64,000 bases of DNA from a bacterium (GCA_965261085.1 OZ253442.1:4000001-4064000); one strand, 5' to 3'. Positions 5,987 to 28,617 are shown, counted from the stretch's first letter. The notes: generated by a model from the letters alone, not told the origin. A program made the numbers and translations.

Positions 5987-5987
5987 G

Positions 5988-7160: not shown

Positions 7161-7205
7161 CCTGACGGATGGAGGAGGAAGCCTCTCGCCAGGTGAGATG
7201 ACGGC

Positions 7206-10162: not shown

Positions 10163-11560
10163 GCTGCGCACGAAACAGAGCAAGATGGCGAACAGCCAGT
10201 AGGGATAAAAGTGGGCCGTGGTGGAAACACCGACGAACAAGGCAGCTACGGTAGAGAAAATGACGGCGAAAGGCATCACGATTTCGAGTGAACCTTCATG
10301 GGGTGGCAAGCGCATGATTCTGAAAAAATACATCAAACCCGTGGCGAGCAAGGCCATCAGCAAAACGAGACCCAGCAATCCCAAGTCCACGATGAAATTC
10401 ACCGGCAGGCTGTGCAGGGAAACCGGTGCGCTCTTTCTCGGATTTTCCTGAAACAAATCTGCAGTCGACCATCCCCGAATACCCGATTCATACCGGGTGA
10501 TGTCGCCGTAAAAATACGCAGAGAACGTGGCCGGCGTATCTTTGGAATATCCATAGAAAAACCCCTGGCGCGGCCCGCCTCCCAAGAAAGGCCGCTCGAA
10601 AAACACATCCGATGCCCGCGCGTACTGAAAGAGCCGCTCCTTGACGCTCGTAGAAATGTTCGACACTTCGATGAACTCCTCTCGCACCGTCGTCCCCACC
10701 ATCACCGAAACGCAAATACACACCAGGAAAACCGAGGTCGTGAAACAACAAACGCGAAAAGACTTTATCTTCTTGCTTGCGCCTGAGGACCCTCTGAACT
10801 TCACGAAAAAGACGAGAAGGAAGAACGCGCCCAGGAACAACGCGAAAATCGGAACCCGGCGCCATGTGGATAAAAGCATGAGTGTTCCGGTGAGCGACGC
10901 GAGCAAGTAAAACCAGCCGCCTCTTCTACAGAAAAAATAAAAGGCGACGCCCGCCAGTATCAGCCCGAGCCTGCTGGCAACGATGTGGTGCCGCGCGAAC
11001 ATGCCGAGAAAAAACCGTCCCTCATGATTGAGCGAATACGGGTTGGGGATGCTCAGATAATAGAACAGGATGCTCTCGATACCCATTGCGAAGGCGACCC
11101 AGAATACACTCCCGAGCGCGCCTTCAAACTCCTCACTCCCCCACCGGTTGTTTTGAATCAAATACCATACGAGCATACCGTCGGCGTAGGGTACGGCATC
11201 GGCCAGAATCCGGTAGAGGGGCACGGACGTCTTGATGGGGTCATCCTGCATGTAGCCATGGATAATCCCTCCCCAGAATATCACCCAAAACCAAAGGGCG
11301 GCGACGGTAAACCCCGGCGTCGGTTTTCTTGCCCCGAACCGAATAACCTCTACCACCCATGCGGAGCACAACAAAACGAAAAGGATCATGTAGACCTTAT
11401 AGGGACCCAGGGCTTGACCCGGGAAGTAAGGAACACGCTCCCATGGGATAAGAAAATAAACCGCGTGCAGACGAATGACTGAATTGGTGAGTTGAAAAGA
11501 AAAGGGGTTCTTTTCACTTGAAACAGGGTGGACATTTGAAGCCGCGCGGTCCACGTTCAA
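10130..11560 (-). CDS. O-antigen ligase/Wzy-like polytopic membrane protein
   Basis: Many TM segments, ER..Y, RPFLGGG, LHSLPVNFIVDLGLLG; 3' end overlaps the convergent paralog by 33 bp. Confidence 0.75.
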   Translation of the reverse strand: MNVDRAASNVHPVSSEKNPFSFQLTNSVIRLHAVYFLIPWERVPYFPGQALGPYKVYMILFVLLCSAWVVEVIRFGARKPTPGFTVAALWFWVIFWGGIIHGYMQDDPIKTSVPLYRILADAVPYADGMLVWYLIQNNRWGSEEFEGALGSVFWVAFAMGIESILFYYLSIPNPYSLNHEGRFFLGMFARHHIVASRLGLILAGVAFYFFCRRGGWFYLLASLTGTLMLLSTWRRVPIFALFLGAFFLLVFFVKFRGSSGASKKIKSFRVCCFTTSVFLVCICVSVMVGTTVREEFIEVSNISTSVKERLFQYARASDVFFERPFLGGGPRQGFFYGYSKDTPATFSAYFYGDITRYESGIRGWSTADLFQENPRKSAPVSLHSLPVNFIVDLGLLGLVLLMALLATGLMYFFRIMRLPPHEGSLEIVMPFAVIFSTVAALFVGVSTTAHFYPYWLFAILLCFVRSLYREVLAKVV

Positions 11561-11566
11561 GGAAAA

Positions 11567-12388
11567 CTACTCCGGCGCGCCTGGGCGTCTGGAAAAATAG
11601 CCTCTCTTCACCCACATGCGCACCTTGTGCGGCAACATGCGATATGAAAACCAAAGCGGCAACAATGCGCGATGCGGGAACCCTCCCCCCAAGGCGCGAA
11701 TCGCCCTGTTTTGCAGCACAACCCCATCGAGCACATAGCGAAGCCTGGCGCCCCGCTCGAAGAACTGTCTCGCGTGGATTCTTTTCGCCGCCACGGGAAC
11801 CTCCAACGCCCCGAGCTTCATTCCGTTTTCATACAATCGCACATAGAGGTCCCAGTCGAGTTGGCCGGCGCGACTCTCGTCGTAGCCTCGGATTTTCTGC
11901 ATAGCCTCGCCTCTCACGAACAATGACGTGTGAACCACAGGATTAAAAAGCATGAGTTTCCTTCGAACATCCCTCAACGAGGGCTTTTTTTCCTCCGAAC
12001 CGAATGCGGGCCAATGTGGAACGTCTTCCGCATGAAAGGCGAACAGGGGGGAAACGACAGCAGAATAATCAGGAAAACGCTGCATCACTGCTTTTTGAAT
12101 TTCAAATCTTCTGGGGTGGGACAAATCGTCGGCGTCATGCCGGGCAATGAATTCACCCCTGCTCTCGCGCATCCCGAGGTTGAGTGCTCTCGCGAGTCCG
12201 ATTCTTCCCGCTTCTATCAGGCGAATTCTAGAATCGCTAAATTTTTCGACGATTCGAATCGTATCGTCCGTGGAGCCGTCGTCGATGACGACGCATTCAA
12301 AATCGGATTCCGTCTGCGCGAGTATACTCTTCACGGCGTCGGCGATGTATTCCTCGGCGTTGTAAGACGTCATCAATACGCTTATCAC
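11567..12388 (-). CDS. GT2 family glycosyltransferase
   Basis: ISVLMTSYN, DDGSTD, HDADD; GTG 12388 with GAGG RBS preferred over the ORF-track start that overlaps asnB. Confidence 0.88.
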   Translation of the reverse strand: MISVLMTSYNAEEYIADAVKSILAQTESDFECVVIDDGSTDDTIRIVEKFSDSRIRLIEAGRIGLARALNLGMRESRGEFIARHDADDLSHPRRFEIQKAVMQRFPDYSAVVSPLFAFHAEDVPHWPAFGSEEKKPSLRDVRRKLMLFNPVVHTSLFVRGEAMQKIRGYDESRAGQLDWDLYVRLYENGMKLGALEVPVAAKRIHARQFFERGARLRYVLDGVVLQNRAIRALGGGFPHRALLPLWFSYRMLPHKVRMWVKRGYFSRRPGAPE

Positions 12389-12425
12389 GTCTGATTCCTC
12401 TTCTTGGGGCCTATTTTGCGAAAAA

Positions 12426-14351
12426 TCAATCGCCCGCCGAACGATGAGCGTCCAGCATCTCCCGAAACCATAGCTCCAAAACCACCAAAAACCATATAAG
12501 GGGATAGGAGGCTCTCCCCGCTCTGAAACGGGCATACAACCTGCGGACCTCCTTGGGTGAGAAAATACCTCTTCTGCGAAGCGACTCCTCACTGAGCGCA
12601 TCCTCGAGGATTTCTCGCAAATCTTCTTTCATCCACTTCGCCATCGGAAGGGCGAAGCCCTGTTTTCTCCTGGCGGAAATCTCAGGGGGAATGACGTCGT
12701 GAAGCGACGCCTCAAGCAATCTCTTCGGATGTCCCCATTTTTGCTCCCACCCGGGAGGCAGGCCACAGACGAATTCCACTACATGATGATCGACGAACGG
12801 CACCCGCACTTCCAGGGAATGGGCCATGCTCATCACGTCGACATCGCGCAAACATCGCCACCCCATATACACTTGCATTTCGAGTTCGCTCAGAATGCTC
12901 CAGGGCCTCTCACCAACGTGGACTAACGAGTCGAGTATCGCGAAAATATCCTCATCCGCCTTACACTCGCGAAAGTAGGTCTGCATTTGCGGGGAATACA
13001 AAGCTCTCTTCTCCTCGGGCCACAACAAAAGACGCGCCAGGGCGTACAATCCCAGCGGCGATTCCACCCATTGCAGCCGACGAAGCTTTTCAGTGCGCTC
13101 CGTAGACATGTTCGAGCCGAAGCGGAGTATCAGCGAGATGAGCGACACGAGGATTTTTCTCGTCGCCAAAGGCAATTTTCCCCATTTGGCCGATAATCGC
13201 CACAAAGGCGGTATCAGGCGAAACGAGCCGTATCCGCCGAAAAGCTCATCCGCCCCAAGGCCGGACAAGGCGACGGTTACGCCATCTTGCTTCACCGCAT
13301 GGGATAGGAGATAGGTATTGATTCCATCGAAACTTGGCTGGTCCAGATGCCGCACGATGCGGGGAAGCTCCCCTGCCACCTTCGAGCCTTTGATCACGAA
13401 CTCCAAGTGGCGCGTTGAAAAGGATTGCGCCGCAGTTCTCGCATATTTTCTCTCATCGTATCCTTCAGGAGCATCATCGAAACCGATGGAATAGGTCCTT
13501 ACGGGTTTATCCGCCCGGCGGGACATCAACCCCACAATCGCCGAAGAATCCAGACCACCACTCAAAAATGCCCCTATGGGAACATCGCTTATTTGATGGA
13601 GTTCGACGCTTTCCTCCAATAAACCACGTAGACGGGGAACGATTTCCTCATCGGCGCATCGCGTCGTTCCGGGTGCCGGTATCTCCCACCACTGCTCGAT
13701 GGATGCACCCTTTTCGGTGATGCGCATTCGGTGCCCCGGAGGCAAAGCCTTCACGCCTCTCAATAGCGTGCGTGCACCGGGAACGAAGCCCAGAGAAAGG
13801 CTGAGGTCAAGAGAATTCAGGTCGAGTTCGGGGCGAATCGCGCCGCTTCTCACCAGCGCTCCCAATTCCGAGGCGAACGCCCATCCACCCGCGATCGGCG
13901 CGTAGTACAAAGGTTTCACGCCGAGCCGGTCACGCGTCAAGAGCAAGATTCTTCGGCCGGCGTCCACGATCGCGAATGAAAACATCCCCCTTAAAAAACG
14001 GGCGCACCCCTCCCCTTCCTCCTCGTAAAGGCGCAGAAGAACCTCCGTATCGGAGTTCGATCTGAAGGCGTGGCCTCGACTCGCCAGATGCTCCCTCAAT
14101 CGTCTGAAATTATAGATTTCCCCGTTCAACGCAACGCAGGTTCTCCCATCTTCGCTGGTCATGGGTTGTTTCGCCGCCGAACTCGGGTCGATGACGCTCA
14201 GACGCCTCACCCCAATGCAGGTTCCTCCAAAACGCCAAAGCCCCACATCGTCTGGGCCGCGATGCGTCATCGCATCGCACATCCGCGCAACATTCTCCTC
14301 CATCAAGGACGGTGAGAGTTCGGTCGAGGTGATTCCGCAAATTCCGCACAT
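12426..14351 (-). CDS. asnB: Second asparagine synthase family amidotransferase
   Basis: MCGICG start at 14351, HRGPD, LSGGLDSS, SGLGADELFGGY. Confidence 0.92.
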   Translation of the reverse strand: MCGICGITSTELSPSLMEENVARMCDAMTHRGPDDVGLWRFGGTCIGVRRLSVIDPSSAAKQPMTSEDGRTCVALNGEIYNFRRLREHLASRGHAFRSNSDTEVLLRLYEEEGEGCARFLRGMFSFAIVDAGRRILLLTRDRLGVKPLYYAPIAGGWAFASELGALVRSGAIRPELDLNSLDLSLSLGFVPGARTLLRGVKALPPGHRMRITEKGASIEQWWEIPAPGTTRCADEEIVPRLRGLLEESVELHQISDVPIGAFLSGGLDSSAIVGLMSRRADKPVRTYSIGFDDAPEGYDERKYARTAAQSFSTRHLEFVIKGSKVAGELPRIVRHLDQPSFDGINTYLLSHAVKQDGVTVALSGLGADELFGGYGSFRLIPPLWRLSAKWGKLPLATRKILVSLISLILRFGSNMSTERTEKLRRLQWVESPLGLYALARLLLWPEEKRALYSPQMQTYFRECKADEDIFAILDSLVHVGERPWSILSELEMQVYMGWRCLRDVDVMSMAHSLEVRVPFVDHHVVEFVCGLPPGWEQKWGHPKRLLEASLHDVIPPEISARRKQGFALPMAKWMKEDLREILEDALSEESLRRRGIFSPKEVRRLYARFRAGRASYPLIWFLVVLELWFREMLDAHRSAGD

Positions 14352-14464
14352 ATGATCACCGAGCCATCTTTTTACCCGCAAAAGAAACCCATATCGCCTA
14401 TCTGATGGCGATGGGTCTCGAAGTCGGGGAGAACCGAAACGTCCGGGGAATTTCCCGGATCACC

Positions 14465-16261
14465 TTACGACTGCAATTCCACGAATTTTCGATATCGGCC
14501 TTCCATCCGCATGAGAGAGGGGTGGTCTCCTTCCTCGACGATTCTCCCGCTCTCGAGAACCAGAATTTTGTCCGCATTTCTTATTGTAGAGAGACGATGC
14601 GCGACGATCAGGATGGTCATCCGCCCGCTGAGATTCCGCACAGCCTCCTGGATGAGACGCTCGAACCCGCTGTCGAGCGAACTCGTCGCTTCGTCCAGGA
14701 CCAATATCCGGGGGGAGCGAACCAAAGCTCTCGCAAGGGCCAGACGCTGTTTTTGCCCGCCGGATAACTTGAACCCCCGATTCCCGATGATCGTTCGGTA
14801 CCCCTCGGGCAATTCCGTGATGTATTCATGGGCATAGGCGATTTCCGCGGCCTTTCGCACCTCCCCTTCATCCGCGCTCAAGTTTCCATAGCGGATGTTG
14901 TTGTAAACCATGTCGTTGAAGAGATAGGGATCCTGCTCCACCACCCCGATTCGGCTTCGCCATTCACTCGCGGACACGTCTTTCAAATCTACGTCATCGA
15001 CATAGATGACGCCCTGCGTCGGATCATGAAGACGCAAGAAAAGATCGACGAAAGTCGTCTTCCCGCTTCCTGAAGAACCCACGAGCGCCGTCGTCGTATC
15101 CTTTTCGATCGATACGTTTATTCCGCTCAGCGCATCACCCCGCGCTTCCGGATATGTGAACGACACGTTTTCAAACCTGACTCCTTTTTGCAGAGAACCG
15201 ATAGAAGCGATTCCTTCCGGCAAGCATTCCAGGCTTTTGCCTTCAGCGTATTCGCGAACCCTCGCCATGTGGGGAGCGAATTCGTTCACGATGAGCCAGT
15301 AATTGCCTATCAGCTTGAGCTTGGGGAGAACTTGCAAAAAGATCGCCAAAAACACCGTGAGGGTGAAAAAGGGAATCTCCAGAAATTTGACCGAAACAAT
15401 CAAGCAGAAAACCATCATCAAGAAAATCAACGGCTCGTAGAAGAACGACGCAATGATTCTGTTGTGCATGATCTGGACACAGACCCGGTGATACCCATTT
15501 GCGCGCATCGTATAATTTTCGATGTGATGCGCGAGGTTTCCAAACACTTTCACCGTCTTGATTCCCGAGAAAACATCGTGGAGATAGGAACTGATGTTCT
15601 CCACGCCCTCCGATTCTTTCGCGCCCTCCGCATAGGCCTTGCGAAACCACGGAAGTAGAAAAAACCAGGAAATCGACGAGAGGCCGAGGACCAGAACACT
15701 CAGCGAAAAAGAAACCATCAAATTCAGGATCAGATACAAAATACAGAAAAAAATGGCGTTCATGATGAGCATCACGTGTTCGAAAACAAAACCGCAATTG
15801 TTCGCAGAAGTGAATTGAACAGAGACGAGATCGCCGATTTTTCTTCGGTAAAAAAACGAGAGGGGAAGATCCATGAAGTTTCGAAATATTTTTTCTCTCA
15901 TGTCGCATGCGATTCTCGAACTCAGCACCCTCGCGAAGCGCATGGAGCTCGCAACCAGAGCATATTTGACCAGCATGGCGAACGAGAACAAGGCGATGAG
16001 ATTGAGGAGTGAAAACTCCAAGCCGACGACGCCGAATCCCCATTCGGCGTACGCCGTGAGGATGTGGTTCGTTGCGATGCCCTGAATTGTCTGAAATATG
16101 GGCATCAGCAGTCCCAAGCCGACGCTCTCGAACATCGTCGCCAGAATTAGGATGAACAAATACAAGAACAGGAAATCCTTGTAATCCCGTGCGACGGCGA
16201 GAATATATCTTTGTTTATCGTTCCACATGGGGCTTTTTTGCTTAAGCCGGAAATTGCCCAA
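14465..16261 (-). CDS. ABC transporter, fused permease/ATPase (MsbA/PglK-like glycan flippase)
   Basis: N-terminal TM domain, GSSGSGKT, LSGGQKQR, LDEATSSLD, AHRLST; glycan-locus context. Confidence 0.88.
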   Translation of the reverse strand: MGNFRLKQKSPMWNDKQRYILAVARDYKDFLFLYLFILILATMFESVGLGLLMPIFQTIQGIATNHILTAYAEWGFGVVGLEFSLLNLIALFSFAMLVKYALVASSMRFARVLSSRIACDMREKIFRNFMDLPLSFFYRRKIGDLVSVQFTSANNCGFVFEHVMLIMNAIFFCILYLILNLMVSFSLSVLVLGLSSISWFFLLPWFRKAYAEGAKESEGVENISSYLHDVFSGIKTVKVFGNLAHHIENYTMRANGYHRVCVQIMHNRIIASFFYEPLIFLMMVFCLIVSVKFLEIPFFTLTVFLAIFLQVLPKLKLIGNYWLIVNEFAPHMARVREYAEGKSLECLPEGIASIGSLQKGVRFENVSFTYPEARGDALSGINVSIEKDTTTALVGSSGSGKTTFVDLFLRLHDPTQGVIYVDDVDLKDVSASEWRSRIGVVEQDPYLFNDMVYNNIRYGNLSADEGEVRKAAEIAYAHEYITELPEGYRTIIGNRGFKLSGGQKQRLALARALVRSPRILVLDEATSSLDSGFERLIQEAVRNLSGRMTILIVAHRLSTIRNADKILVLESGRIVEEGDHPSLMRMEGRYRKFVELQS

Positions 16262-16424
16262 AACATGAACGATTTCAGCAGGCCGAAAGCCCCGGGCGCA
16301 TCAGAATCACTCATGCTCCTCGGAGGTCACGCCATGCGTTTCATCGTCGCTCATCCTTGGGTCGGGGTCGATATTTCCGGACCTTTGCCTCGTGGTGGGT
16401 CGTCTTTATCTCGTGGAGTGGCGT

Positions 16425-17831
16425 TTATGGATTTTGAATTTCAGGTAGTTTCTCAGACGAAGCCGTTTCCATCCACTCAGCCGCAATTTTCTCCGCTAGC
16501 CAAAACTCATACGCCGAATTGATTCTCACGCTTTCCTCTGGAAGCATCGTGATATGCCCTATTTTTTCTCCTAAAAATTTTCCGGATAGAATCGAATCCA
16601 CCCGGTTCAGGTAAATCGCGCCGTTTTCCTTGAACAACGCTTCTCTCTCAAGACGGAACGTTCTTTGGAAAGATCCGTTGACGGGGGTGAGGCCATGTTT
16701 ACCGTGATGATAGAAGAATGAAATATCCTCGGTGATGGATATCACGGAATCGACACCGAAAATCGTCATGGTGTCCACGGCTTTATCGATGTGCCTGCCC
16801 CGGCGAAAAGGGGTGTTGATATAGCATATGCAAACAGCATCGGGGACATATCCATGCTCCTCCAGCGTCCTCAAAACATGAAGCGTCGTATCCGCTATCT
16901 TGGCAGTCCGTTCCGCCAGCGCTTCGGGCCTAAGGAGGCCATCCACTCCCTCGAAACGCTCTAAATAAGCCAACACGCCTTCATCGTTGGAGGACACGAC
17001 TATCTTGTCGATGGAGCGCGCTTCCTTGATTTGCTCCAGGGTTCCTTTCAACAGCGGCTTTCCCATGAATTGCGTAAGAGGATTCGCGAGCTCGCATCCC
17101 CCATCCACGACTACGGGAACGAGCGCCAATACTTTTGGTTGGCGGGAAAGATTCATTTCCTCCACCACCCGCCTTTTGATTTTGCGGCGCGTCTCCAGGA
17201 GCAGGCCCCGGGATTTCGACAAACTCTCGCCGTGACGACGATAATAAAACAGGGGCAGATTCACGTTATAGGGATAATGCCGCTGAATGAATTTCAGCCA
17301 CAGCCCGTAACCGTCCTGACGATCGAACTCCTCGAAATAACCGCCTATTTCCGCGAGAATTTCCTTGCGGATCATGGTGCATGCGCCATGCGCCGGAAGA
17401 TCGAGCAAATCGATCTCTTCTCCTATTTTCTGGCGACGAACGATTTCGATGATCTCTCCATCCTCGTCCACGTGATAATAATCCGGGTACACCAGACCTA
17501 CGCCGGGTTTCGTGTCCAGGATGTTGGAGAGAACCAGCAGAATGTTCTCATCCAGAAAATCATCCGCATCCAGCCGCATCAGGTATTCGCCCTCGGCGGC
17601 GCGCAAGGCGATGTTGTTCGTGAAATTCAAACCCTTGTTCTCTTGCTCAAGAATGCGAATCTTGGGATACGCTCTGTAGGGTTCGAGTATTTCCGCCGTG
17701 TTGTCCGTCGAGCCGTCATTGATGACGATCAACTCCCAATCATCCATGGTCTGCTTCAAAACGCTTTGTATCGCGGCGTCGAGAAAACGGGCGTAGTTGT
17801 AGGTAGGAATGTAAACCGTAATTTTAGGCAT
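16425..17831 (-). CDS. GT2 glycosyltransferase fused to a C-terminal cytidylyltransferase-like (NeuA/KdsB fold) domain
   Basis: N-term YIPTYN, DGSTD, LDADD; C-term GKPLL, IVVSSND, RPEALA, TPFR, ENGAIY. Confidence 0.82.
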   Translation of the reverse strand: MPKITVYIPTYNYARFLDAAIQSVLKQTMDDWELIVINDGSTDNTAEILEPYRAYPKIRILEQENKGLNFTNNIALRAAEGEYLMRLDADDFLDENILLVLSNILDTKPGVGLVYPDYYHVDEDGEIIEIVRRQKIGEEIDLLDLPAHGACTMIRKEILAEIGGYFEEFDRQDGYGLWLKFIQRHYPYNVNLPLFYYRRHGESLSKSRGLLLETRRKIKRRVVEEMNLSRQPKVLALVPVVVDGGCELANPLTQFMGKPLLKGTLEQIKEARSIDKIVVSSNDEGVLAYLERFEGVDGLLRPEALAERTAKIADTTLHVLRTLEEHGYVPDAVCICYINTPFRRGRHIDKAVDTMTIFGVDSVISITEDISFFYHHGKHGLTPVNGSFQRTFRLEREALFKENGAIYLNRVDSILSGKFLGEKIGHITMLPEESVRINSAYEFWLAEKIAAEWMETASSEKLPEIQNP

Positions 17832-17870
17832 GATGAATCAACCCAAATGGAATGAATCCGGCCGCCATGA

Positions 17871-19463
17871 TTATTCCACCATGTCTATGAAGAGGGACTG
17901 ATCCGCCTGGATGTCCGTTTGTGCTCGTCTGCCGATCAATTCATCCATCATCCAGCCCGGAAGGCCGTCGGCGGGCCTTTTCATGCCCAGCATGGAAGAT
18001 TCTATGGTCTCTCCACTCCCAATATCCCGCTCGGCTACGATGCTGCGCCGGGCACTGTCGCGGGCGGCGTGTTCTCCCTCGGCGACTCCGAGCGCACCGT
18101 CTCCCAAAACGCTCTCAGCAAGGCGAACGTTTTGCACTATCTTCTTCAAATCTTTCGGGTTCATCGAGAAGAAATGGCCTGAATCACTCAACTCTCGATC
18201 CAGAGTGTAGTGTTTTTCAATGACCTTCGCTCCCAGAGCCACGCCCAGGGAAGGTATGACCATGTTCGCATCCGGTTCAGTATGATCGGAAAGACCAACG
18301 ATGAGACCGGGGTATCTTTCTTTCAAAGAGCGGATACGCAGAAGATTCGCATCTTTGTTCGGCGCCGGATAACTCAACATACAGGCCATGAGGATGAGTT
18401 GATGGTTGCCCGTAGCGAAAATGGTGGTGATGGCCCGCTCGATCTCCTCGACCATAGAACCCCCGCTTGAAAGAATAACGGGCTTGCCGAAACCGGCCAC
18501 GCACCTGAGCAACCGGCTGTCGGGAAGATCACATGAGGCGATTTTGAAAAGCGGTGCGTCCAAATCGTTCAGCATCTCGGCGCTTTCAACGTCGAACGGC
18601 GTGGAGAACGTGATGATGCCCTTCTCGAAACCGTATGCGAAAAGCGCTTCATATTCAGGCGCGCCGAAGCGATCGAGTTTCCGATAATACTCAATTTGCG
18701 GAATCTGTTTCCCGCGCCAGTAAGTCATCGCTCCTTTGCGCGTCAGGCGTTCGGCCTTATAGGTCTGGAACTTGATAGCATCCGCCCCGGCTTCGGCGGC
18801 GAGGTCGATCATCTCCTTGCCCATGCCTAAGTCACACATGTGATTGCAGGCGGCTTCGGCAATCACGAAGGCGGGATGGCCCTCCCCTATCATCCTGTCA
18901 CCGACGGCGATTTCCTTCGAATACGGACTCATCTCATGCGCGGCCATGGCGAGGTCGAATGAAGAGTGGATGTTGACGCAATCATCTTGAACTGCGGATG
19001 AATACAGGGGCGGGTCCGCCATCAACGCCCTCATGCTCATGATGCGAAGCGCCCCGTTTCGCTTTCCATGGCGATCCACCGTACACAAATCGTCGATCCG
19101 GTTGTCTTTGACGTATTGCAACAGGGCGTCCAAGTCGCTTTTTCTGTTCGGATGATCGGGTTGAACCCCGACAAGGAAAGACACGTTCACACGGCCCAAT
19201 TCCCTGGCGACGTCCCGGTACACCTCGACCAAGGGCGTTTCGCCGCTCAGCCCATCGCCCCTGAAATGAACCATCACCCTGTTGCGCCTGCCGATCTCGG
19301 CAATTTCTTCGGAATCGGTGGATACGACGATTTTGTCCACACTCCGAAATTTCCTGGCGTAGTGAATGGCATGCACCACCAGAGAAAGGCCGTTGATTTC
19401 CAACAAATTCTTGTCCGCCAGACGATCCGAATGCCGCTTGGCCGGTATGACGGCGACGATCAA
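17871..19463 (-). CDS. Cytidylyltransferase (NeuA-like) fused to a nonulosonate synthase (NeuB-like with SAF domain)
   Basis: N-term IPAKRHSDRLADKN, VVSTDSEEI; C-term IAE..CNH, DAIKFQTY, FSTPFD, KIASCD, GLSDHT, IEKHYTLD, KRPADG. Confidence 0.88.
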   Translation of the reverse strand: MIVAVIPAKRHSDRLADKNLLEINGLSLVVHAIHYARKFRSVDKIVVSTDSEEIAEIGRRNRVMVHFRGDGLSGETPLVEVYRDVARELGRVNVSFLVGVQPDHPNRKSDLDALLQYVKDNRIDDLCTVDRHGKRNGALRIMSMRALMADPPLYSSAVQDDCVNIHSSFDLAMAAHEMSPYSKEIAVGDRMIGEGHPAFVIAEAACNHMCDLGMGKEMIDLAAEAGADAIKFQTYKAERLTRKGAMTYWRGKQIPQIEYYRKLDRFGAPEYEALFAYGFEKGIITFSTPFDVESAEMLNDLDAPLFKIASCDLPDSRLLRCVAGFGKPVILSSGGSMVEEIERAITTIFATGNHQLILMACMLSYPAPNKDANLLRIRSLKERYPGLIVGLSDHTEPDANMVIPSLGVALGAKVIEKHYTLDRELSDSGHFFSMNPKDLKKIVQNVRLAESVLGDGALGVAEGEHAARDSARRSIVAERDIGSGETIESSMLGMKRPADGLPGWMMDELIGRRAQTDIQADQSLFIDMVE

Positions 19464-20755
19464 CTCTCCTCTCCTCTCGTTTTCATGCGCGAAATTACCG
19501 GCATGATTTGTCCCGCCTGCCGAAGCACAATGAGCTTCGAATTTGGTCCCGTCGAATCCAAGGCTCTCTCGACCGCCGCCTCTATCGACTCGGCCCAGCC
19601 GAATCCCATCCCGTTCGCCTCCTCACGGTCGATATGGGGGGAAACCAATACCCCCTTCACGCGCTTGGAAATGATTCTGCCGATGGCGACCAGCGTATAG
19701 GCCAGGAGTTTTTCACGAAATTCACCCATTTTAACCTTTCGGTAAAGCGCGTCGGGGTCTTTGAAACCATACCGCTCAAAATTGGGGAATTGCGGCGAAA
19801 CGCCTTCCCGGCAATCCGCGGCTAGGATGATCACCCCGTTGTCCCGGCAGACGAGGTCCGCCGCGCACACGGCTTTAATGGACTGGCGCAGATCGATGTC
19901 AGCCGGGTAGGCTTCCGCAACGACGACTTCCGCCTTTGCGGCGACCGGCACACCATATAGATCCAGACATCGCTCACAGCCCACTTCGTGGGCCGATTCC
20001 AAGTCTCCGGCAACGGCGTCATAAATTCTTTCCTCATCCATCATGATTGTGTTGACGATGAAACGCAGCCTGACCCGACGCGCGATGCGAACAAACGCTT
20101 CTCTCACCTTGTTGTCGAAGTGGCCGAGAATTTCTCTCATCTCATAGTCCAGAGCGGCCCAATGGGTCTCTTCTATCGTGGCCTCTCCGCAAATGCCGGG
20201 CATCACGCTCTTCGCCCCGCCGGAGAAGCCCGCCGTCGCATGAGGTATGATGCTGCCGACGGATATAGTGAGATCCGTTTTCAGGATTTCCTTGTTCATC
20301 AGCACGTCAAAACCCAACCCGCTCTTCCCCAATGAAATAAGCTTTAAGGGGTTTTTCCATTCATGGTTGAGAATCTCGAATCGCGCGACCAGATCGTCTC
20401 CAAACTTGCGCCGTATCTCCTCATCCGTCATGGCGCGGTGCGTACCCAAGCCGATCAGAATACGGATGGAAGAATCGGAGACGCCCGCCTCGGCAAGTTC
20501 CTCCAGAATGAGGGGAAGTACGCGATGAAGCGGGGTATGGCGCGTATTGTCGTCGGTGACGATCAACACCCTCCCGGCGCCTTTGGAAATCTCCCGGAGA
20601 GGGGGAGCGCCGATCGGGTTTCGAATCCGCTCCCGCAGGGCTTCGTCATCAAGCCCCCCGCCTCTTGATAGTGAGGGACCATAGACCCCTATCAGCCGCC
20701 CATCTTCGACTTCAAAATCGCCGAACAGATCATTCGTCAGAGATATCCTCGCCAT
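19460..20755 (-). CDS. LarA-family nickel-pincer-dependent racemase/epimerase
   Basis: DDNTRHTP, GLGTHR, IPHATAGFSGGAKSVMPG, QSIKA match LarA catalytic motifs. Confidence 0.88.
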   Translation of the reverse strand: MARISLTNDLFGDFEVEDGRLIGVYGPSLSRGGGLDDEALRERIRNPIGAPPLREISKGAGRVLIVTDDNTRHTPLHRVLPLILEELAEAGVSDSSIRILIGLGTHRAMTDEEIRRKFGDDLVARFEILNHEWKNPLKLISLGKSGLGFDVLMNKEILKTDLTISVGSIIPHATAGFSGGAKSVMPGICGEATIEETHWAALDYEMREILGHFDNKVREAFVRIARRVRLRFIVNTIMMDEERIYDAVAGDLESAHEVGCERCLDLYGVPVAAKAEVVVAEAYPADIDLRQSIKAVCAADLVCRDNGVIILAADCREGVSPQFPNFERYGFKDPDALYRKVKMGEFREKLLAYTLVAIGRIISKRVKGVLVSPHIDREEANGMGFGWAESIEAAVERALDSTGPNSKLIVLRQAGQIMPVISRMKTRGEES

Positions 20756-22641
20756 CAGCGCGCCTCCGCCTCATCGGTTCGCCATAATTTCGAATCAGGC
20801 GAAGAGAAAATATCCACCCATTCTGAGCGCCAGTTCTTGTTGTTGCGATAATAACGAATCGCAAATTCATCGACGGCTTCCCGCGTGCTGCGATCCTCCC
20901 ACCACGAATCGACATCAGGCCAGATGGCGTTCAGATGCCTCGCCGCACTCTCGCCGGATGAATGATGAACGTGCACACTGATAAGTTTCTTGATGCCCGG
21001 TTTCGCAAAACGGGAAACGCGCCAGGCGTTAGCCCCCCCGAAGAAAAGGGTCGGAATGCCCGCCGCCATCGTGAATGCCGCCGTCGTTCCCGGGCGATCG
21101 AGAACACAAACGCCGCATCCCGCTAACGCACGCGAGAGCTTGGTCGGCATGTATCTCACCAATTTTCCGCGAAGGATTTTCACGTCAGGGTATTTCTTTT
21201 CGATATAGGCCTGATCGTATTGATTGTTCCTCCTGCGCGTATACGGCCTGTACCACAAGGCGGAGCGAGGCGCGTCGCCCAAGTGTTCGATGAAACTCGT
21301 CTTCCCCATCATGTATTGCGCGATGTCTTCGGGAAGGGAGTCCGCCGCCAGCCATTTCATATGGGGGGTGAGTTCGGAGCTGACCAGAATGATGAATGAG
21401 TTCCGCTTCTTGCTCCTCCTCATTTTTGAGAGAAAAGGAGAAACCGCCGGCACGGCGTTTATTCGATAATCGGATTGACGCCTCCACCCCCACGATATGA
21501 ACCGATCGGCCGTCTTATACTCCGCAAGGTGATGCCAAGGCGCCGACTCGATGACGCCGTAGTTCCCCCCATGCTGATTGATAACCAGCCTTGCCGGGCG
21601 TTTTTCTAGGAGAGCGGCCACGTAAAAATTCGACTGATCGTCATTTCCCAGATGGCCATAGGCGATGGTATCCGTCCAGGGCGCCGTCGCCTTTACCTTC
21701 AACCGGGCTTTTTTCTCGTTTTCCAGATAATGATGTGTGAAAATCTTTGGCATCATCTCCACAACGAGCCCATCCAAAACACTCAGGAAAATCACGGCTT
21801 CCGTAGCGGTGATGTCCCGGAACGATTGGAGTTCATCAACCACGTCGTTCCTGGTGAGGTTCCCCTTTTCCGCTTCGGACGTTTCATCAAACGATTTAGC
21901 GGCCTCTTTCCAGCCTCTTCTGTTTCGAAACAGCATGCGCAAGGAAATGTAAAAAGCATCCAGCGGACTCAATCCATGCACTTTATGGAATTGTACGCAC
22001 CCCATGTTGGAAGAGAGGATGCTCGCCCAGCGATACACCTCCATTTTTCTTTGCACTTTTTTGAAAACGGCATAGTTTTCCGTTGAAGTCGCGCCGGATG
22101 AGTGGTCCGAGGAGAAATACGCATCTCCCGGGGCGGGAGCACCGTCTCGCACCACCCAATCTCGGGGCTGGAATGCGCGGATGAATTTACTGAATATCAG
22201 CCGGTTCAAAGGATCGTCGATAAGCATCTGATTAAAATGGGGCGTCGTGATGGATGAAAGGCTTTCATCCTCAGGGGAGAGATATACGAGATACGGCACA
22301 CGGCTTCTGACCCGATTTCTGACGCGCAAAAACCGTTCGAATGCGCACATGACCAGATTGATGAGCCACGGCATCAACAAGATGCGCCAGTAGCGATTCG
22401 AATAAGAACGCCCGTGTCTTTCGTTTTGCCGGATATTCAACCTAGAGAGATAGAATTCACAAACCTTCTCAAGCCTTCTGGAGACGAAGTGAACCTCCTC
22501 GCTTTTGAGCGCCGGCTCGATTTCGTATTTTTTCCATTCCCACTCAAAAAGCTGAGACTCCGAAAGTGACCAGGGGCCTAAATGCTCGGCCTGTCGCTCG
22601 TTCGGGATGGAATCGATTTTCGTCAGCACGAGTTGTTTCAT
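20755..22641 (-). CDS. Putative transferase, LIC12162 family (surface-carbohydrate locus)
   Basis: HLGPW, LN..HG..YS.RYWRILLMPWL, NQHGGNYG, FISWGW, YRPY, GIPT; start set at ATG 22641 (or 22668) because the longer ORF overlaps a tRNA. Confidence 0.7.
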   Translation of the reverse strand: MKQLVLTKIDSIPNERQAEHLGPWSLSESQLFEWEWKKYEIEPALKSEEVHFVSRRLEKVCEFYLSRLNIRQNERHGRSYSNRYWRILLMPWLINLVMCAFERFLRVRNRVRSRVPYLVYLSPEDESLSSITTPHFNQMLIDDPLNRLIFSKFIRAFQPRDWVVRDGAPAPGDAYFSSDHSSGATSTENYAVFKKVQRKMEVYRWASILSSNMGCVQFHKVHGLSPLDAFYISLRMLFRNRRGWKEAAKSFDETSEAEKGNLTRNDVVDELQSFRDITATEAVIFLSVLDGLVVEMMPKIFTHHYLENEKKARLKVKATAPWTDTIAYGHLGNDDQSNFYVAALLEKRPARLVINQHGGNYGVIESAPWHHLAEYKTADRFISWGWRRQSDYRINAVPAVSPFLSKMRRSKKRNSFIILVSSELTPHMKWLAADSLPEDIAQYMMGKTSFIEHLGDAPRSALWYRPYTRRRNNQYDQAYIEKKYPDVKILRGKLVRYMPTKLSRALAGCGVCVLDRPGTTAAFTMAAGIPTLFFGGANAWRVSRFAKPGIKKLISVHVHHSSGESAARHLNAIWPDVDSWWEDRSTREAVDEFAIRYYRNNKNWRSEWVDIFSSPDSKLWRTDEAEAR

Positions 22642-22784
22642 GCGTCGAGCACTTTTCCCACACCTCATCGCATACGCATAAGGCGTGAACGGAGTAACGG
22701 CGCAAATGGCCGTCCCCCCAAGGCGCGCGTTAAACACCCTCGCGCCGCTCGACTTGACGGGAAAGGAATTTCTACAGCAACGGT

Positions 22785-22862
22785 TGGCGTCCCCAAGGGG
22801 ATTCGAACCCCTGTTGCCGGCGTGAAAGGCCAGTGTCCTGGGCCAGGCTAGACGATGGGGAC
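22785..22862 (-). tRNA. tRNA-Glu (TTC)
   Basis: Reverse complement GTCCCCATCGTCTAGCCTGGCCCAGGACACTGGCCTTTCACGCCGGCAACAGGGGTTCGAATCCCCTTGGGGACGCCA: cloverleaf, TTC anticodon, GTTCGAA T-loop, encoded CCA. Confidence 0.97.
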
Positions 22863-22960
22863 AAGTAAAAATCCAGGAAGGCCAAGGAATGAATTCCCGG
22901 ACCTTCAAGGGGTCGATTTATACTGGTTTTCGGGCTGGAAGTCCATCCCGCTCCACCACT

Positions 22961-23830
22961 TCAAACGCGCAAGACGACGAGGATGACTCCACTCACGGTG
23001 AGGGCCGCTCCTGCAGGCTCGCGCCAGGTGATGGATTCGACCCGCCTGAGAAAAATCACGCTGAAAAGCACGGTGAACAAAGGGCTAGTCTGCACCATCG
23101 GCACCACCCTGAAAACCTGGCTTTCCTGTAATGCGGACATGAAAAGAAAAATCCCCATCCCTGCCGCTACGCCACCCAGTAGATACGGCCAAAACGCTCG
23201 CTTCACGTCGCCCGCGTCCTCTTTGCGCAAAGCATAGCAGGTATAGGCGCCCACTACGACGAGAGCGGCGGCGGCGCCTATCAGCGAAGCGGCAAGTGCG
23301 CTTTGGAAAGCGACCACGCCTTTTTTCCAGGACATAGCTCCAAACCCCGATATCATCGCCGCGAACACGGGCCAACGGGCGTCCCAGCGGCTCCATCGCC
23401 CTTCCGTCTTTCCCGATACGAGCAACACGATGCCGCCCACCACGAACACAACGCCCATTAGATGGTACCAGGCCGGCTCCTCTCCCAGAAAAATGACCGC
23501 CAAAAGGGCGGCGAATATGGGGGACATCCCCTTTATCGGCGCCGCGCGCGCCACACCGATCCGGTGAATGCCGATCAGAAAAAAGATGAGGAAAAGCCCT
23601 GGGTTGCACAGGCCGCCAATCATCACCCACAGATAATGCGGGCCCATTTCCGGGAAGGGAGAACCTAAAAGGAAGACCAACGGAATTAAGAGAACCAACT
23701 CTCCCACCAGCGTGATGGTGGCGCCCACGAAATGGTTGGCGTACTGCAAGCCCTTGCGCGCGAAGAAATCAGCGCATGTAAAAGAGAGCGCCGCGCCCAG
23801 AGCGAAAAGAACAAATGGCTCAATCAACAA
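22961..23830 (-). CDS. EamA/DMT family transporter
   Basis: About 10 TM segments in two repeats, SPIFAALLAVIFLGE. Confidence 0.85.
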   Translation of the reverse strand: MLIEPFVLFALGAALSFTCADFFARKGLQYANHFVGATITLVGELVLLIPLVFLLGSPFPEMGPHYLWVMIGGLCNPGLFLIFFLIGIHRIGVARAAPIKGMSPIFAALLAVIFLGEEPAWYHLMGVVFVVGGIVLLVSGKTEGRWSRWDARWPVFAAMISGFGAMSWKKGVVAFQSALAASLIGAAAALVVVGAYTCYALRKEDAGDVKRAFWPYLLGGVAAGMGIFLFMSALQESQVFRVVPMVQTSPLFTVLFSVIFLRRVESITWREPAGAALTVSGVILVVLRV

Positions 23831-25292: not shown

Positions 25293-26969
25293 TCAAAAAT
25301 CATTCGGCGAGAATCCGGGCCGCCCCCTCAATATCGCCTTGATGTCCTCACGCTTGTGTTTGCGCGTGGTGGTTCTGGGTAATTCCTCCTCGGGCCAGAG
25401 GAAAAACCCGGCCACCCTCTTGTAATCCGCAAGGTGCGTGCTCAAGCGCTTGAGTTCGGAATCGGCCAGGGCCGCGCGCTTCTGCTCTTCTTGTGGAAGA
25501 TCAGCTTCGGGGTCTAGCACCACGACGGCGAACACCTCCTCACCGCCGCGAGACGTCTTCCTGCCGATGACGCATACGTCCTGAAACCACTCACTCTCGA
25601 GAAGCTGCTCCTCCACCTCTTCGGGATATATGTTTTTTCCCGCCTCGGAGATAATAACGTTTTTGGATCGGCCGCATATCGTGAGGTAGCCGTCCGCATC
25701 CAGACGACCAATATCCCCGGTATGAAACCACCCATCGCGCAAAACCTCCACCGTCAACTCCGGGTTTTCAAAATAGCCCTGCATCACGTTCGGCCCGCGT
25801 ATCAGGATTTCGCCCTCTCCTTCGCCCGCTCCCTCCACGGGTTCGATCCGAGCCTCGACCCCCGGAATCGGCGGGCCGACTGTTCCGATTCTGTTCGGAG
25901 TTCCCGACGGATTTGCGTGGGTGACGGGAGAGGTTTCCGTCAACCCATATCCCTGAAGCACCTCGATCCCCAAAACGAGCAAATCACGAGCGATTTTCGG
26001 GTCGAGTGCGGCTCCCCCGCTCGCGAAATAGCGTAAATTCTCGCCGAGATTCTTCTTCACCTGAGATAACAACAAACCCCCGACGCGAAAACCCATGGAC
26101 AGGCAAATCCCGGAAATACCGAAAAGGAACTTAAAAACGATTTTCTTCGCCCCGCTCAGCGATTCCACGTTCGACATGATCCGCTTATGGATGAGCCGCG
26201 CAAGTGCCGGCACCATCAGGCAGATGGTGATGCCCTCTTTTTTCATGGTCTCCGCGAGGAGGCGCGGGTTCAGAGAAGATAGGTAGTGCACGCGGGCGCC
26301 GGCCGCTAACGGAACCAGAAAACCTCCCGTGCTCTCGAACATGTGGTGAAGCGGCAGAATCGAGAGAAAACCATCGCCCTCCCCGGCGTCGAACGGCTCG
26401 AGCACGGCGCGCACATTGGAGGTGATGTTCCCGTGAGAGAGCATCACTCCTTTGGGCGTTCCCGTCGTTCCCGATGAGAACGACACCAGCGCCAAATCGT
26501 CCGGGCTTCGCTCCGCGCCCGGCAGCGCGTCCAGCGAAGCAGAGGGAGTGGGCTCTCTCACCTCATCAATGCGCAACACCGCGCAGACCGACGCGAGATC
26601 GCCCGCAAGCGTTCCGGCGCGCTCCTCTTCCCGAGCGTCCGTCATCAGGCAAACGGGCCTGGCTTTTTCCAGAATGTTCGCGATCTCCCCTTCTTTCAGG
26701 TTCACGTCCAACGGCACGAGAACGCCACCGGCGAGAAGCGCCCCGAAATAACCCACCCCCCATTCGGGTTGATTCGGAGCCAGCAACGCGACGAAATCTC
26801 CCGGCTTCACGCCTGAATCCATCAGTTCACGGGCCAAGGCGGCCGCTTTGCCGCATAGTTCTATTCTCGTGAGCACCACCCGTCCACGTCCTTCCACATC
26901 GCCTTCTAGGGCGATCGAGTCTGGAAATTTCGCGGTTGCTTCTTTCAGGATATTAATCAGCGTATCCAT
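25293..26969 (-). CDS. Long-chain acyl-CoA synthetase (AMP-binding)
   Basis: SSGTTGTPKG, QGYGLTE, FHTGDIG, GKNIYPEE. Confidence 0.9.
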   Translation of the reverse strand: MDTLINILKEATAKFPDSIALEGDVEGRGRVVLTRIELCGKAAALARELMDSGVKPGDFVALLAPNQPEWGVGYFGALLAGGVLVPLDVNLKEGEIANILEKARPVCLMTDAREEERAGTLAGDLASVCAVLRIDEVREPTPSASLDALPGAERSPDDLALVSFSSGTTGTPKGVMLSHGNITSNVRAVLEPFDAGEGDGFLSILPLHHMFESTGGFLVPLAAGARVHYLSSLNPRLLAETMKKEGITICLMVPALARLIHKRIMSNVESLSGAKKIVFKFLFGISGICLSMGFRVGGLLLSQVKKNLGENLRYFASGGAALDPKIARDLLVLGIEVLQGYGLTETSPVTHANPSGTPNRIGTVGPPIPGVEARIEPVEGAGEGEGEILIRGPNVMQGYFENPELTVEVLRDGWFHTGDIGRLDADGYLTICGRSKNVIISEAGKNIYPEEVEEQLLESEWFQDVCVIGRKTSRGGEEVFAVVVLDPEADLPQEEQKRAALADSELKRLSTHLADYKRVAGFFLWPEEELPRTTTRKHKREDIKAILRGRPGFSPNDF

Positions 26970-27055
26970 GCGCGTCTCCTCCCACCTCGGCCCGCACGAA
27001 GGATTCTACGGGTCGGACAAGGACTACCAACACTCAATTCCAACGAGCGTTTCGG

Positions 27056-27847
27056 CTATATCAAGCGTTTCCTGACTTGCCATGCGGCGAACTCTCCCGC
27101 GAAAACCAGGGCGATGATGGCCAGCACCAGCACACCTGATTTTTGCCACTGAAACTGCTTCACATACAAAAACACGTAAAACCCCAGGCCTCCCGCACCG
27201 ACAAGGCCCAAAATCGTGGAATCACGCAGATTCATCTCGAAACGTATGGCCAGATGCGCGACCATCTGAGGCAGAACCTGTGGAATTAGGCCGTGTTGGA
27301 TAACCTGAACGGACGAGGCGCCAGTACCCTGCAATGCGAGCAGGGGTTTCGGATCGGTCGCCTCGATTTCCTCAGCCACGAACCGGCCGAGGACCCCGAC
27401 GGAGTGCACCGCCAGCGCCAACACGCCGGGAAAGGGGCCGAGTCCCACGGCAGAGACGAACAACAATGCGAGAAGTAGCAAAGGGATGGAGCGGACGAAC
27501 GCCATCAGCGCCTTGATGGGCAAATGCACCCAAACCGGCGTCCAGTTCGACGCTGCCAGCACGCCCAGTGGATAGGCGAACAGGGCGCCCAGAAAAGTGC
27601 CCGCGATGGTGGTTTGCAGCGTTTCGATCGCCGAGGTCAGCAAAACATCCCAGACCGACCAGTCCGGCGGCGTCATCCGGCCAAAGAAATGAATCAACTG
27701 GGGAATACCGCGCCAGAATTGCTTGAGTGAAAACTCAGAACCTTGAAAGGACCAGAATAAGAGTGCGCTAACCGCCAGGAAGAGGCTGGCCCTGGTAGCC
27801 ATACGCCCAGGTGGAAGCGCTTCTGCTTGCTCTCGCTCCGTTCTCAT
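27056..27847 (-). CDS. phnE: Phosphonate/phosphite-type ABC transporter permease
   Basis: RMTPPDW, RSIP, GLGPFPG, RFEMNLRDSTILGLVGAGGLG; the start may be 27802. Confidence 0.88.
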   Translation of the reverse strand: MRTEREQAEALPPGRMATRASLFLAVSALLFWSFQGSEFSLKQFWRGIPQLIHFFGRMTPPDWSVWDVLLTSAIETLQTTIAGTFLGALFAYPLGVLAASNWTPVWVHLPIKALMAFVRSIPLLLLALLFVSAVGLGPFPGVLALAVHSVGVLGRFVAEEIEATDPKPLLALQGTGASSVQVIQHGLIPQVLPQMVAHLAIRFEMNLRDSTILGLVGAGGLGFYVFLYVKQFQWQKSGVLVLAIIALVFAGEFAAWQVRKRLI

Positions 27848-28613: not shown

Positions 28614-28617
28614 TTCC

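Follow-up and report, generated by a model that had tools for sequence, protein, structure and literature searches.

The known roles of nickel-pincer enzymes are catabolic or balancing ones, as racemases and epimerases that act on hydroxy acids in free form. The characterised members of the LarA family (LarA of Lactiplantibacillus plantarum, structures 5HUQ and 6C1W; Mar2, 6D6Z; LarA_Ip, 9EIA; and GntE) have a two-domain fold, a pair of catalytic histidines, a lysine that tethers the cofactor, a histidine that binds nickel, and Arg, Gln and Lys ligands of the substrate carboxylate. Here we analyse a stretch of 64,000 nucleotides of bacterial DNA (GCA_965261085.1 OZ253442.1:4000001-4064000; hereafter the window, which is C1:4,000,001-4,064,000 on one contig of 4.27 Mb) from a genome whose close relatives carry the labels Nitrospinota or Nitrospinae, and in it a gene for a LarA homologue of the same fold family and with the same set of residues. 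It is, however, only ~30-40% identical to the characterised proteins and, unlike them, it lies in a context of glycan biosynthesis and not of catabolism.

The locus also shares some features with the described nonulosonic acid pathways (NeuB/NeuA, PseI/PseF and LegI/LegF) and with KdsB. As in these, there is a NeuB-SAF synthase, a CTP_transf_3 domain and a transferase of a nonulosonate-type family. In contrast with them, the genome is devoid of NeuC/LegG and of a PseB-type dehydratase, the synthase scores below the NeuB and PseI cut-offs, and the cytidylyltransferase is compact, KdsB-like and fused ahead of the synthase; the locus also adds the nickel-pincer enzyme and a fusion of a glycosyltransferase family 2 (GT2) domain with a degenerate cytidylyltransferase-like domain. 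To our knowledge, none of the fusions nor a nickel-pincer enzyme belongs to the described nonulosonic acid or Kdo pathways. As judged from sequence comparisons, the LarA homologue is very probably a working part of an ulosonic acid pathway.

Coordinates of the genes and junctions concerned, all on the minus strand, are:

20755-22641, minus strand: LIC12162-family transferase (TIGR04331), 628 residues from the ATG at 22641
20755, minus strand: TGATG, one-base stop/start overlap between the transferase gene and the LarA homologue, read directly as 'cgcTGATGgcg'
19460-20755, minus strand: LarA homologue, 431 residues (Lar_N and LarA_C)
19460-19463, minus strand: TTGA, four-base overlap between the stop of the LarA homologue and the TTG start of the NeuB fusion, read directly as 'gagagTTGAtc'
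17871-19463, minus strand: cytidylyltransferase-NeuB-SAF fusion, 530 residues (CTP_transf_3, residues 3-124; NeuB, 218-456; SAF, 472-530)
18873-19463, minus strand: compact KdsB-like cytidylyltransferase domain of this fusion, residues 1-197 (CTP_transf_3)
17871-18872, minus strand: NeuB-family, phosphoenolpyruvate (PEP)-condensing ulosonic acid synthase domain with a C-terminal SAF domain (NeuB and SAF profiles)
16425-17831, minus strand: GT2 domain (Glycos_transf_2, residues 5-162) and cytidylyltransferase-like C-terminal half, 468 residues
16428-17144, minus strand: cytidylyltransferase-like C-terminal domain of the GT2 fusion

The LarA homologue is translationally coupled at both junctions, and the two overlaps are those reported in a first-pass annotation of the window. 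The purine-rich, Shine-Dalgarno-like gagaggagaggagag lies just upstream of the second junction, and the TTG start of the NeuB fusion aligns with the ATG or GTG starts of its orthologues. A longer, TTG-started open reading frame (ORF) of the transferase, reaching 22908, is not conserved as a single frame in relatives. The promoter and terminator scan was uninformative, with 3 promoter-like sites against 8.0 expected.

A putative new subfamily of LarA

The LarA homologue is the sole Lar_N match in the genome (E-value 8.2e-55; 185.6 bits against a cut-off of 23.3), and it also matches LarA_C (1.2e-12; 48.4 bits against 25) and known structures, with E-values of 9.5e-54 for L. plantarum LarA (5HUQ) and 3.4e-51 for Mar2. 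In the alignment to L. plantarum LarA (5HUQ/6C1W), from which residues were numbered, D69/R72 correspond to D72/R75 of LarA, H106 to H108, H172 to H174, K182 to K184, H198 to H200, and Q291/K294 to Q295/K298. Both catalytic histidines of LarA (H108 and H174) are thus present as H106 and H172, and R75, K184 and H200, which bind the cofactor in LarA (PMC11770544), as R72, K182 and H198. Likewise, the substrate carboxylate ligands Gln295/Lys298 of LarA_Ip are kept as Q291/K294, and the position of Tyr294 is taken by an invariant arginine, R290. The first-pass annotation had stated that the catalytic motifs are retained and that specificity positions differ (HAT for HFF, and RQ for YQ). Both statements hold: all catalytic and cofactor residues align with those of L. 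plantarum LarA, HAT stands for HFF and R290 for Y294, and the catalytic, cofactor and subfamily-specific residues do not vary among 25 family members with 52-84% identity to the window protein.

Four positions of LarA1 (175, 176, 358 and 359) were used by the Desguin group for specificity prediction (PMC11770544). Here the window protein has A173, T174, Y353 and T354, in place of F175, F176, W358 and T359 of LarA1, and it matches none of the LAR, GntE, HGR and MAR patterns given in that paper. A plain lactate racemase, which was the outcome named as adverse in the first-pass annotation, was rejected: the LAR type pattern is F, F, W and E/Q, with T359 in LarA1 itself (PMC11770544), and the score with the lactate racemase model NF033504 is 280.8 bits against a cut-off of 460, with A/T/Y/T in place of F/F/W/T. 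The malate racemase LarAH6, whose model NF052593 is the best-scoring LarAH model (297.2 against 500), was also rejected, there being Y353 and T354 in place of H/Q and K at 358/359 (PMC11770544), and so was the gluconate 2-epimerase type, GntE, with A, T, Y, T in place of E, V, A, H (PMC11770544). A third NCBIfam LarAH model gave 272 against 540 and the hexonate-epimerase model NF052594 gave 74.3 against 500, so that no named NCBIfam LarAH model is matched above its cut-off. The pair of residues that follow the second catalytic histidine contact the C-alpha substituent of the substrate, and Tyr294 bonds its 2-hydroxyl and is reported as necessary for cofactor stability in LarA_Ip (bioRxiv 10.1101/2024.11.28.625916). 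The small, polar A173/T174 pair and Arg290 would fit a large, polar substituent with an extra anionic group. In all, the LarA homologue appears to be an intact member of a new and distinct LarA subfamily, and a putative 2-hydroxy-acid epimerase dependent on nickel-pincer nucleotide (NPN) as cofactor.

Another kind of NPN-dependent hydride reaction on an ulosonic acid, such as an internal redox isomerisation or a reduction of the 2-keto group with a coupled oxidation at another site, seems improbable. The replacement of Tyr294 would be in keeping with it, as would the other hydride chemistry that NPN-type cofactors support in another enzyme family (PMC13524815), but both catalytic histidines and all the carboxylate ligands are invariant, which is the signature of a racemase or epimerase, and one histidine is missing from those subfamilies for which other chemistry is suspected (PMC12393405).

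The search among longer proteins for fused forms of the LarA homologue gave one unrelated PAS/histidine-kinase fusion, no fused form was found among the best 150 cluster representatives of a scan of 1.84 billion proteins, and an Atlas look-up yielded LarA clusters of the ordinary kind only. An apparent GT2-LarA fusion in Desulfobacterales, a 713-residue ORF, was rejected as an artefact of ORF calling, since it comprises two genes in different frames. Elsewhere in the LarA family, L094:4881-7226 (G129:C1, minus strand) encodes a 781-residue protein in which a complete LarA, with both Lar_N and LarA_C, is joined to a 4Fe-4S dicluster domain and to two cysteine-rich CCG domains, and a search for Lar_N across 301 genomes from the phylum to which L061 belongs (tree label Thermoplasmatota) showed similar frames of 784-792 residues in G124, G235 and G268; this fusion suggests a LarA coupled to an electron-transfer module. 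In a Nitrospinota-type genome, the LarA orthologue has an in-frame stop at codon 311 (L016:10931), which marks either a pseudogene or an assembly error. Stops inside the match to the LarA orthologue were also flagged in G348, G350 and G351, and the stop in L014 lies at the natural C-terminus.

Conserved linkage of three genes

A pattern scan with one genome per species yielded 63 loci, against which the window proteins were run by tblastn. Orthologues were accepted at an identity of at least 44% for the NeuB fusion and at least 39% over more than 250 residues for the GT2 fusion, and weaker matches to NeuB paralogues (26-35%) in L021, L022, L023 and L026 were left out of the count. The NeuB fusion was present in 35 of the 36 loci whose LarA homologue is 43.6-90% identical to that of the window, the miss being L020, with 2 bases of contig left, and the GT2 fusion in 32 of the same 36; the misses are L019 and L023, where an insertion of 8.4 kb pushes the gene past the edge of the locus, and L020 and L064, which end. 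In contrast, neither fusion was found in any of 27 loci with LarA homologues that are 28-41% identical, which include relatives of Moorella, Caldatribacterium, Acidobacteriota and others. Conservation of the larA-neuB linkage, a check proposed in the first-pass annotation, is thus clear.

The three genes occur in the order LarA homologue-NeuB fusion-GT2 fusion in 17 loci, GT2 fusion-LarA homologue-NeuB fusion in 10, and NeuB fusion-LarA homologue-GT2 fusion in five. They overlap in some loci and lie up to 3.9 kb apart in others (8.4 kb in L019 and L023). By record titles and tree labels they are spread over at least seven phyla: Nitrospinota, Bacteroidota, Planctomycetota, Verrucomicrobiota, Myxococcota, Thermodesulfobacteriota and Omnitrophota. 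The placement of the protein among LarA homologues gave a matching picture. In a quick tree with 58 rows, the 32 linked proteins are set apart from the rest by a branch with a Shimodaira-Hasegawa-like approximate likelihood ratio test (SH-aLRT) value of 91, L020 being counted as linked although its contig ends there; rows with a stop inside the high-scoring segment pair (L014, L016, L034 and L036) or of unsuitable length (L064 and L066) were left out.

An ordinary catabolic hydroxy-acid racemase that lies in a glycan cluster by chance, with no role in the glycan, is nearly refuted by the linkage data and is a very remote prospect. Surface-glycan clusters are mosaics and the neighbours vary greatly between phyla, as a chance association would have it. 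Against this stand the linkage in 35 of 36 loci in three gene orders versus none of 27, the stop/start overlaps on both sides of the LarA homologue, and the distinct and invariant signature of the subfamily. Furthermore, no hydroxy-acid transporter or dehydrogenase is conserved beside the module in a census of neighbouring genes, which comprised 131 ORFs from 12 non-Nitrospinota loci and took the 25 Pfam families most often matched.

Opposite the NeuB-fusion gene, two Desulfobacterales loci contain antisense frames that run for 1728 and 1753 codons with no stop (L030:11701-16887 and L058:5448-10709, minus strand), which are probably an artefact of composition.

Supply of the nickel-pincer cofactor

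The larB, larC and larE genes, whose presence had been proposed as a further check, are all in the genome above NCBIfam cut-offs. They form a larE-larB-larC operon elsewhere on the chromosome, at ~C1:2,262,030-2,264,868, with 344.8 bits against 150 for LarE, 291 against 175 for LarB, and 199.2 against 90 and 133.3 against 50 for LarC. Other genomes bearing the module have LarC in 19 of 22 cases, compared with 6 of 14 named control genomes, and in 10 of these 22 the LarA homologue of the module is the only Lar_N match. Among 51 sampled genomes of the phylum, orthologues of at least 66% identity are present in 22, and in 20 of the 23 within the genus of the window, the latter included. LarC occurs in 43 of the 51, comprising all 22 with the orthologue and 21 of the 29 without it. 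We thus ruled out that the cofactor genes are retained solely for this LarA.

Absence of canonical precursor enzymes

The lack of a NeuC-type epimerase, a dehydratase and an aminotransferase in the locus, pointed out earlier from the sequence, was borne out: no Epimerase_2, dehydratase or DegT aminotransferase occurs among the genes at 10130-23830. The whole genome (completeness 96.27%) gave no Epimerase_2 match, and therefore has no NeuC, LegG or WecB. Its best Polysacc_synt_2 match reaches only 42.8 bits, indicating that there is no PseB/LegB-type dehydratase either, and its one strong DegT gene is 1.8 Mb away. The NeuB domain itself is clear (3.2e-70, 236.8 bits) and is followed by SAF (2.8e-06, 28.2 bits), in the NeuB-then-SAF architecture (PF03102 and SAF). 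It lies below the equivalog cut-offs of both TIGR03569, N-acetylneuraminate synthase (281.3 against 399.65), and TIGR03586, PseI (259.7 against 340.25). Because the precursor enzymes are absent and the domain is below these cut-offs, N-acetylneuraminic (Neu5Ac), legionaminic and pseudaminic (Pse) acids are unlikely products. A second, weak NeuB-family match (46.1 bits) occurs in a 384-residue frame at C1:2118218-2118802.

Two cytidylyltransferase-type domains and the transferases

The first-pass annotation had named the synthase gene a NeuA-NeuB fusion. The NeuB part stands, but the N-terminal domain is more KdsB-like than NeuA-like: it matches CTP_transf_3 (52.5 bits against a cut-off of 22.6) and its best Protein Data Bank matches are KdsB enzymes. 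Residues K9, S12, R14, K18, Q101 and D103 show little or no variation in 17 orthologues, and they provide the nucleotide Arg/Lys motif and the Gln-x-Asp metal site, with D160 or N164 as options for the second metal Asp. Their counterparts in L-CKS are the Gln98/Asp100 metal site and the nucleotide-binding Arg and Lys (PMC2901514). Between the 'P.R' and 'NGA' motifs the domain has ~35 residues fewer than NmCNS, and the region shortened is the dimerisation and sugar-binding sub-domain.

The GT2 domain of the other fusion matches Glycos_transf_2 (1.4e-28) and keeps the DDGS and DAD-type motifs. Its C-terminal domain scores 22.0 bits with CTP_transf_3, below the cut-off of 22.6, and is PseF-like over residues 253-436. 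This domain keeps the dimerisation and sugar-binding sub-domain, with an invariant R396 at the position of NmCNS Arg165, a sugar-carboxylate ligand. R436 and N438 stand at the NmCNS metal ligands Asp209 and Asp211, and no conserved Arg or Lys of the Arg12/Lys21-type nucleotide motif is found in its N-terminal strand-loop; this nucleotide motif and the first metal Asp are missing in all 16 orthologues. It looks like a sugar-acid-binding module, or conserved pseudo-enzyme, and not an active cytidylyltransferase. The GT2 domain may be a genuine transferase; alternatively, in analogy to PseG, it may hydrolyse a nucleotide sugar and thereby release the substrate of NeuB. A complex prediction of the KdsB-like domain (residues 1-197) with the cytidylyltransferase-like domain (230-455) returned a null score and carries no weight either way.

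The gene preceding the LarA homologue encodes a protein that matches TIGR04331, the LIC12162 family, with 275.3 bits against a cut-off of 225, over its residues 4-610 and profile positions 1-583 of 585, and no Pfam family. With it as the query, matches occurred only in Nitrospinota-type loci, and it is a candidate transferase for the CMP (cytidine monophosphate)-ulosonic acid; a member of the family is described beside neuABC in Herbaspirillum (PMC6679464). Loci from Planctomycetia and Omnitrophota contain a protein of 600-620 residues with a sub-threshold match to BFO_1060 (93.4 bits against 200), a family whose Tannerella members were genetically shown to be transferases of Pse and Leg derivatives (PMC5420450). 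A BLASTP comparison of the LIC12162-family protein with its BFO_1060-like counterpart in L032 showed no more than weak local similarity (E-value 0.054).

Genes associated with the module

In the census, the commonest families were S-adenosylmethionine (SAM) methyltransferases (18 ORFs), radical SAM enzymes (10, eight of them with a B12 domain), GT1/GT4 glycosyltransferases (eight), Epimerase_2 (five) and Polysacc_synt_2 (five). No universal precursor-supply gene was found among the 131 ORFs, nor was any family for acyl activation, acyl carriage or acyl transfer conserved with the module between phyla. The three genes therefore act like a self-contained cassette that has been inserted into glycan clusters of various kinds. 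Since no conserved acyl-activating or acyl-transfer gene accompanies the module, the evidence leans to chemistry on a precursor or on the sugar backbone over an acyl decoration.

This bears on a different possibility, which takes in the acyl decoration suggested in the first-pass annotation: the substrate racemised by the LarA homologue would be a small free 2-hydroxy acid (lactate, glycerate, malate or the like), and the enantiomer so supplied would go on to decorate the ulosonic acid or glycan through an acyl, ether or phosphodiester linkage. Small 2-hydroxy acids, glycerate included, are the substrates of most characterised LarA homologues (PMC11770544), a glyceroyl-substituted pseudaminic acid exists in Tannerella (PMC5420450), and the Nitrospinota loci have an AMP-binding enzyme and an M20 peptidase a few kb upstream. 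However, the AMP-binding gene is seen with the window protein only in Nitrospinota-type loci, and across phyla the commonest neighbours are methyltransferases, radical SAM enzymes and glycosyltransferases and not enzymes of acyl transfer. Likewise, the pocket is unlike the lactate, malate, hydroxyglutarate and gluconate types given in PMC11770544, and the protein is below all NCBIfam cut-offs. Taken together, we regard such a decoration as unlikely, albeit deserving of serious attention.

Neighbours differ from locus to locus, with a sulfotransferase, B12-radical-SAM enzymes, a carbamoyltransferase, an aldolase-like protein and methyltransferases among them. For instance, B12-binding radical SAM enzymes and SAM methyltransferases cluster with the module in Planctomycetota and Omnitrophota (L025, L026, L032, L033, L035 and L038), and in L025 a sulfotransferase lies between NeuB and the LarA homologue. 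These neighbours hint at heavy methylation or sulfation of the sugar. An ABC exporter is found in most, not all, Nitrospinota-type loci, and AsnB is conserved only in loci of this type, where it could amidate a carboxylate of the sugar.

A proposed role in ulosonic acid synthesis

On balance, and with modest confidence, the best explanation is that this LarA subfamily epimerises the alpha-hydroxy-carboxylate centre of an unusual CMP-activated ulosonic acid or of its precursor. The module, comprising the LarA homologue, the KdsB-like-NeuB-SAF protein and the GT2-cytidylyltransferase-like protein, would supply a surface glycan with an unusual 3-deoxy-2-ulosonic acid that it makes and activates with CMP. 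LarA-type enzymes require an H-C(OH)-COO- centre, and a 3-deoxy-2-ulosonic acid has no hydrogen at C2; the centre acted on must then lie elsewhere than C2. The LarA homologue, using NPN made by the larE-larB-larC products, would move the hydride from the C-H of such a centre onto the cofactor and return it to the other face, with inversion of one stereocentre. This centre might be in the substrate of NeuB or at the far end of its product, the simplest case being the distal alpha-hydroxy-carboxylate of an aldehydo (uronic-type) acid. The NeuB domain would condense the inverted acid with PEP or, alternatively, the LarA homologue might act on the resulting dicarboxylic 'ulosaric' acid. The KdsB-like domain would then make the CMP-sugar, and the LIC12162-family transferase, or the BFO_1060-like protein in other phyla, would install it. 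As far as computation goes, the results support the idea, already put forward in the first-pass annotation, of a nickel-pincer step in the synthesis of a glycan with an unusual ulosonic acid.

Uronic or ulosaric chemistry for the LarA homologue is a tentative proposal, to which we give a minority share of our confidence. The enlarged polar pocket with its extra Arg fits it, as does AsnB, provided that a carboxylate is what it amidates. Gluconate and arabinarate are both epimerised by LarA homologues (PMC11770544), and one group of these is suspected to act on uronic or aldaric acids (PMC7583248). A complete route to a CMP-activated dicarboxylic 3-deoxy-2-ulosaric acid, in which a uronic-type acid is inverted by LarA and condensed with PEP by NeuB, is more doubtful still; in it, AsnB of the Nitrospinota cluster would amidate the second carboxylate. 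If true, nucleotide-sugar biosynthesis would have its first nickel-pincer enzyme, and the ulosaric acid class its first known pathway; Dha, the member of this class from plants and algae, had neither a known activated form nor a known pathway as of a 2012 review (PMC3355719).

Several observations weigh against the proposed role. Tyr294 is replaced by Arg in the window protein. LarC was not seen in three of the 22 other module genomes (G007, G018 and G022, two of them Bacteroidota and all of them metagenome-assembled genomes), and it is common in genomes of the phylum devoid of the orthologue. The NeuB orthologues of L025 and L026 have no fused cytidylyltransferase domain; a conventional cytidylyltransferase is near the unfused NeuB in L025, and in L026 a second NeuB-family protein (L026:5663-7480; 605 residues, NeuB then cytidylyltransferase) is encoded 1.4 kb upstream. 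There is no UDP-sugar dehydrogenase or uronate-supplying gene in the 25 commonest families of the census, and the two UDPG/GDP-mannose dehydrogenase genes of the genome are far from the module. The proposed route leaves out the roles of the GT2 domain and of the degenerate cytidylyltransferase-like domain, and the SH-aLRT value comes from a quick tree only. Lastly, members of the new subfamily are known from sequence alone, and the uronic or ulosaric substrate is a chemical deduction.

In agreement with the earlier statement that no such role had been described, we found no paper linking LarA and nickel-pincer enzymes with NeuB, or DUF2088 with sialic acid, in a search of main texts. The main texts of PMC7583248, PMC11770544 and PMC12393405 make no mention of sialic or neuraminic acids or cytidylyltransferases, nor of polysaccharide together with glycan or glycosyltransferase. 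Table S1 of PMC7583248, which lists the gene contexts of 25 groups of LarA homologues, could already show an association with NeuB. PMC8397731 reads an archaeal larA as lactate use and draws no link to nonulosonic acids. Our results thus add to a known class of enzymes a putative new subfamily and a physiological setting that is new for it. With a dedicated and widespread subfamily in CMP-sugar-acid synthesis, the cofactor would gain a biosynthetic function in cell-surface construction, and glycan structure would be linked to the supply of nickel in bacteria that abound in the environment, among them Nitrospinota, planctomycetes, Omnitrophota and sulfate reducers. There are also signs here of a sugar acid to which the standard sialic-acid screens of genomes would wrongly give the name Neu5Ac or Pse, and the module of three genes is small enough for direct reconstitution.

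The surrounding gene cluster

The run of minus-strand genes, down to 10130 and together with the genes at 4040-7889, is a surface-glycan cluster. Its remaining members are:

22961-23830, minus strand: EamA transporter
14465-16261, minus strand: ABC exporter, downstream of the GT2 fusion (ABC_membrane and ABC_tran)
12426-14381, minus strand: AsnB-type glutamine amidotransferase (Asn_synthase, 2.8e-87; GATase_7)
11567-12601, minus strand: second GT2 glycosyltransferase (Glycos_transf_2, 3.3e-29)
10130-11560, minus strand: Wzy/O-antigen-ligase-like membrane protein (Wzy_C, 1.3e-08)
4040-7889: a further AsnB, a GT4 glycosyltransferase and a Bac_transf priming transferase

The Wzy-like gene at 10130-11560 converges with another gene for a Wzy_C-like membrane protein (8639-10162, plus strand), and the two overlap by ~30 bases at their 3' ends. 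Upstream of the module and on the same strand, 25293-31499 contains genes for the AMP-binding enzyme, the M20 peptidase, a phosphonate-type ABC transporter (binding protein, ATPase and permease) and a 653-residue protein resembling di-haem cytochrome c peroxidases. The AMP-binding, M20 and EamA genes hold their position in all full-length Nitrospinota-type loci.

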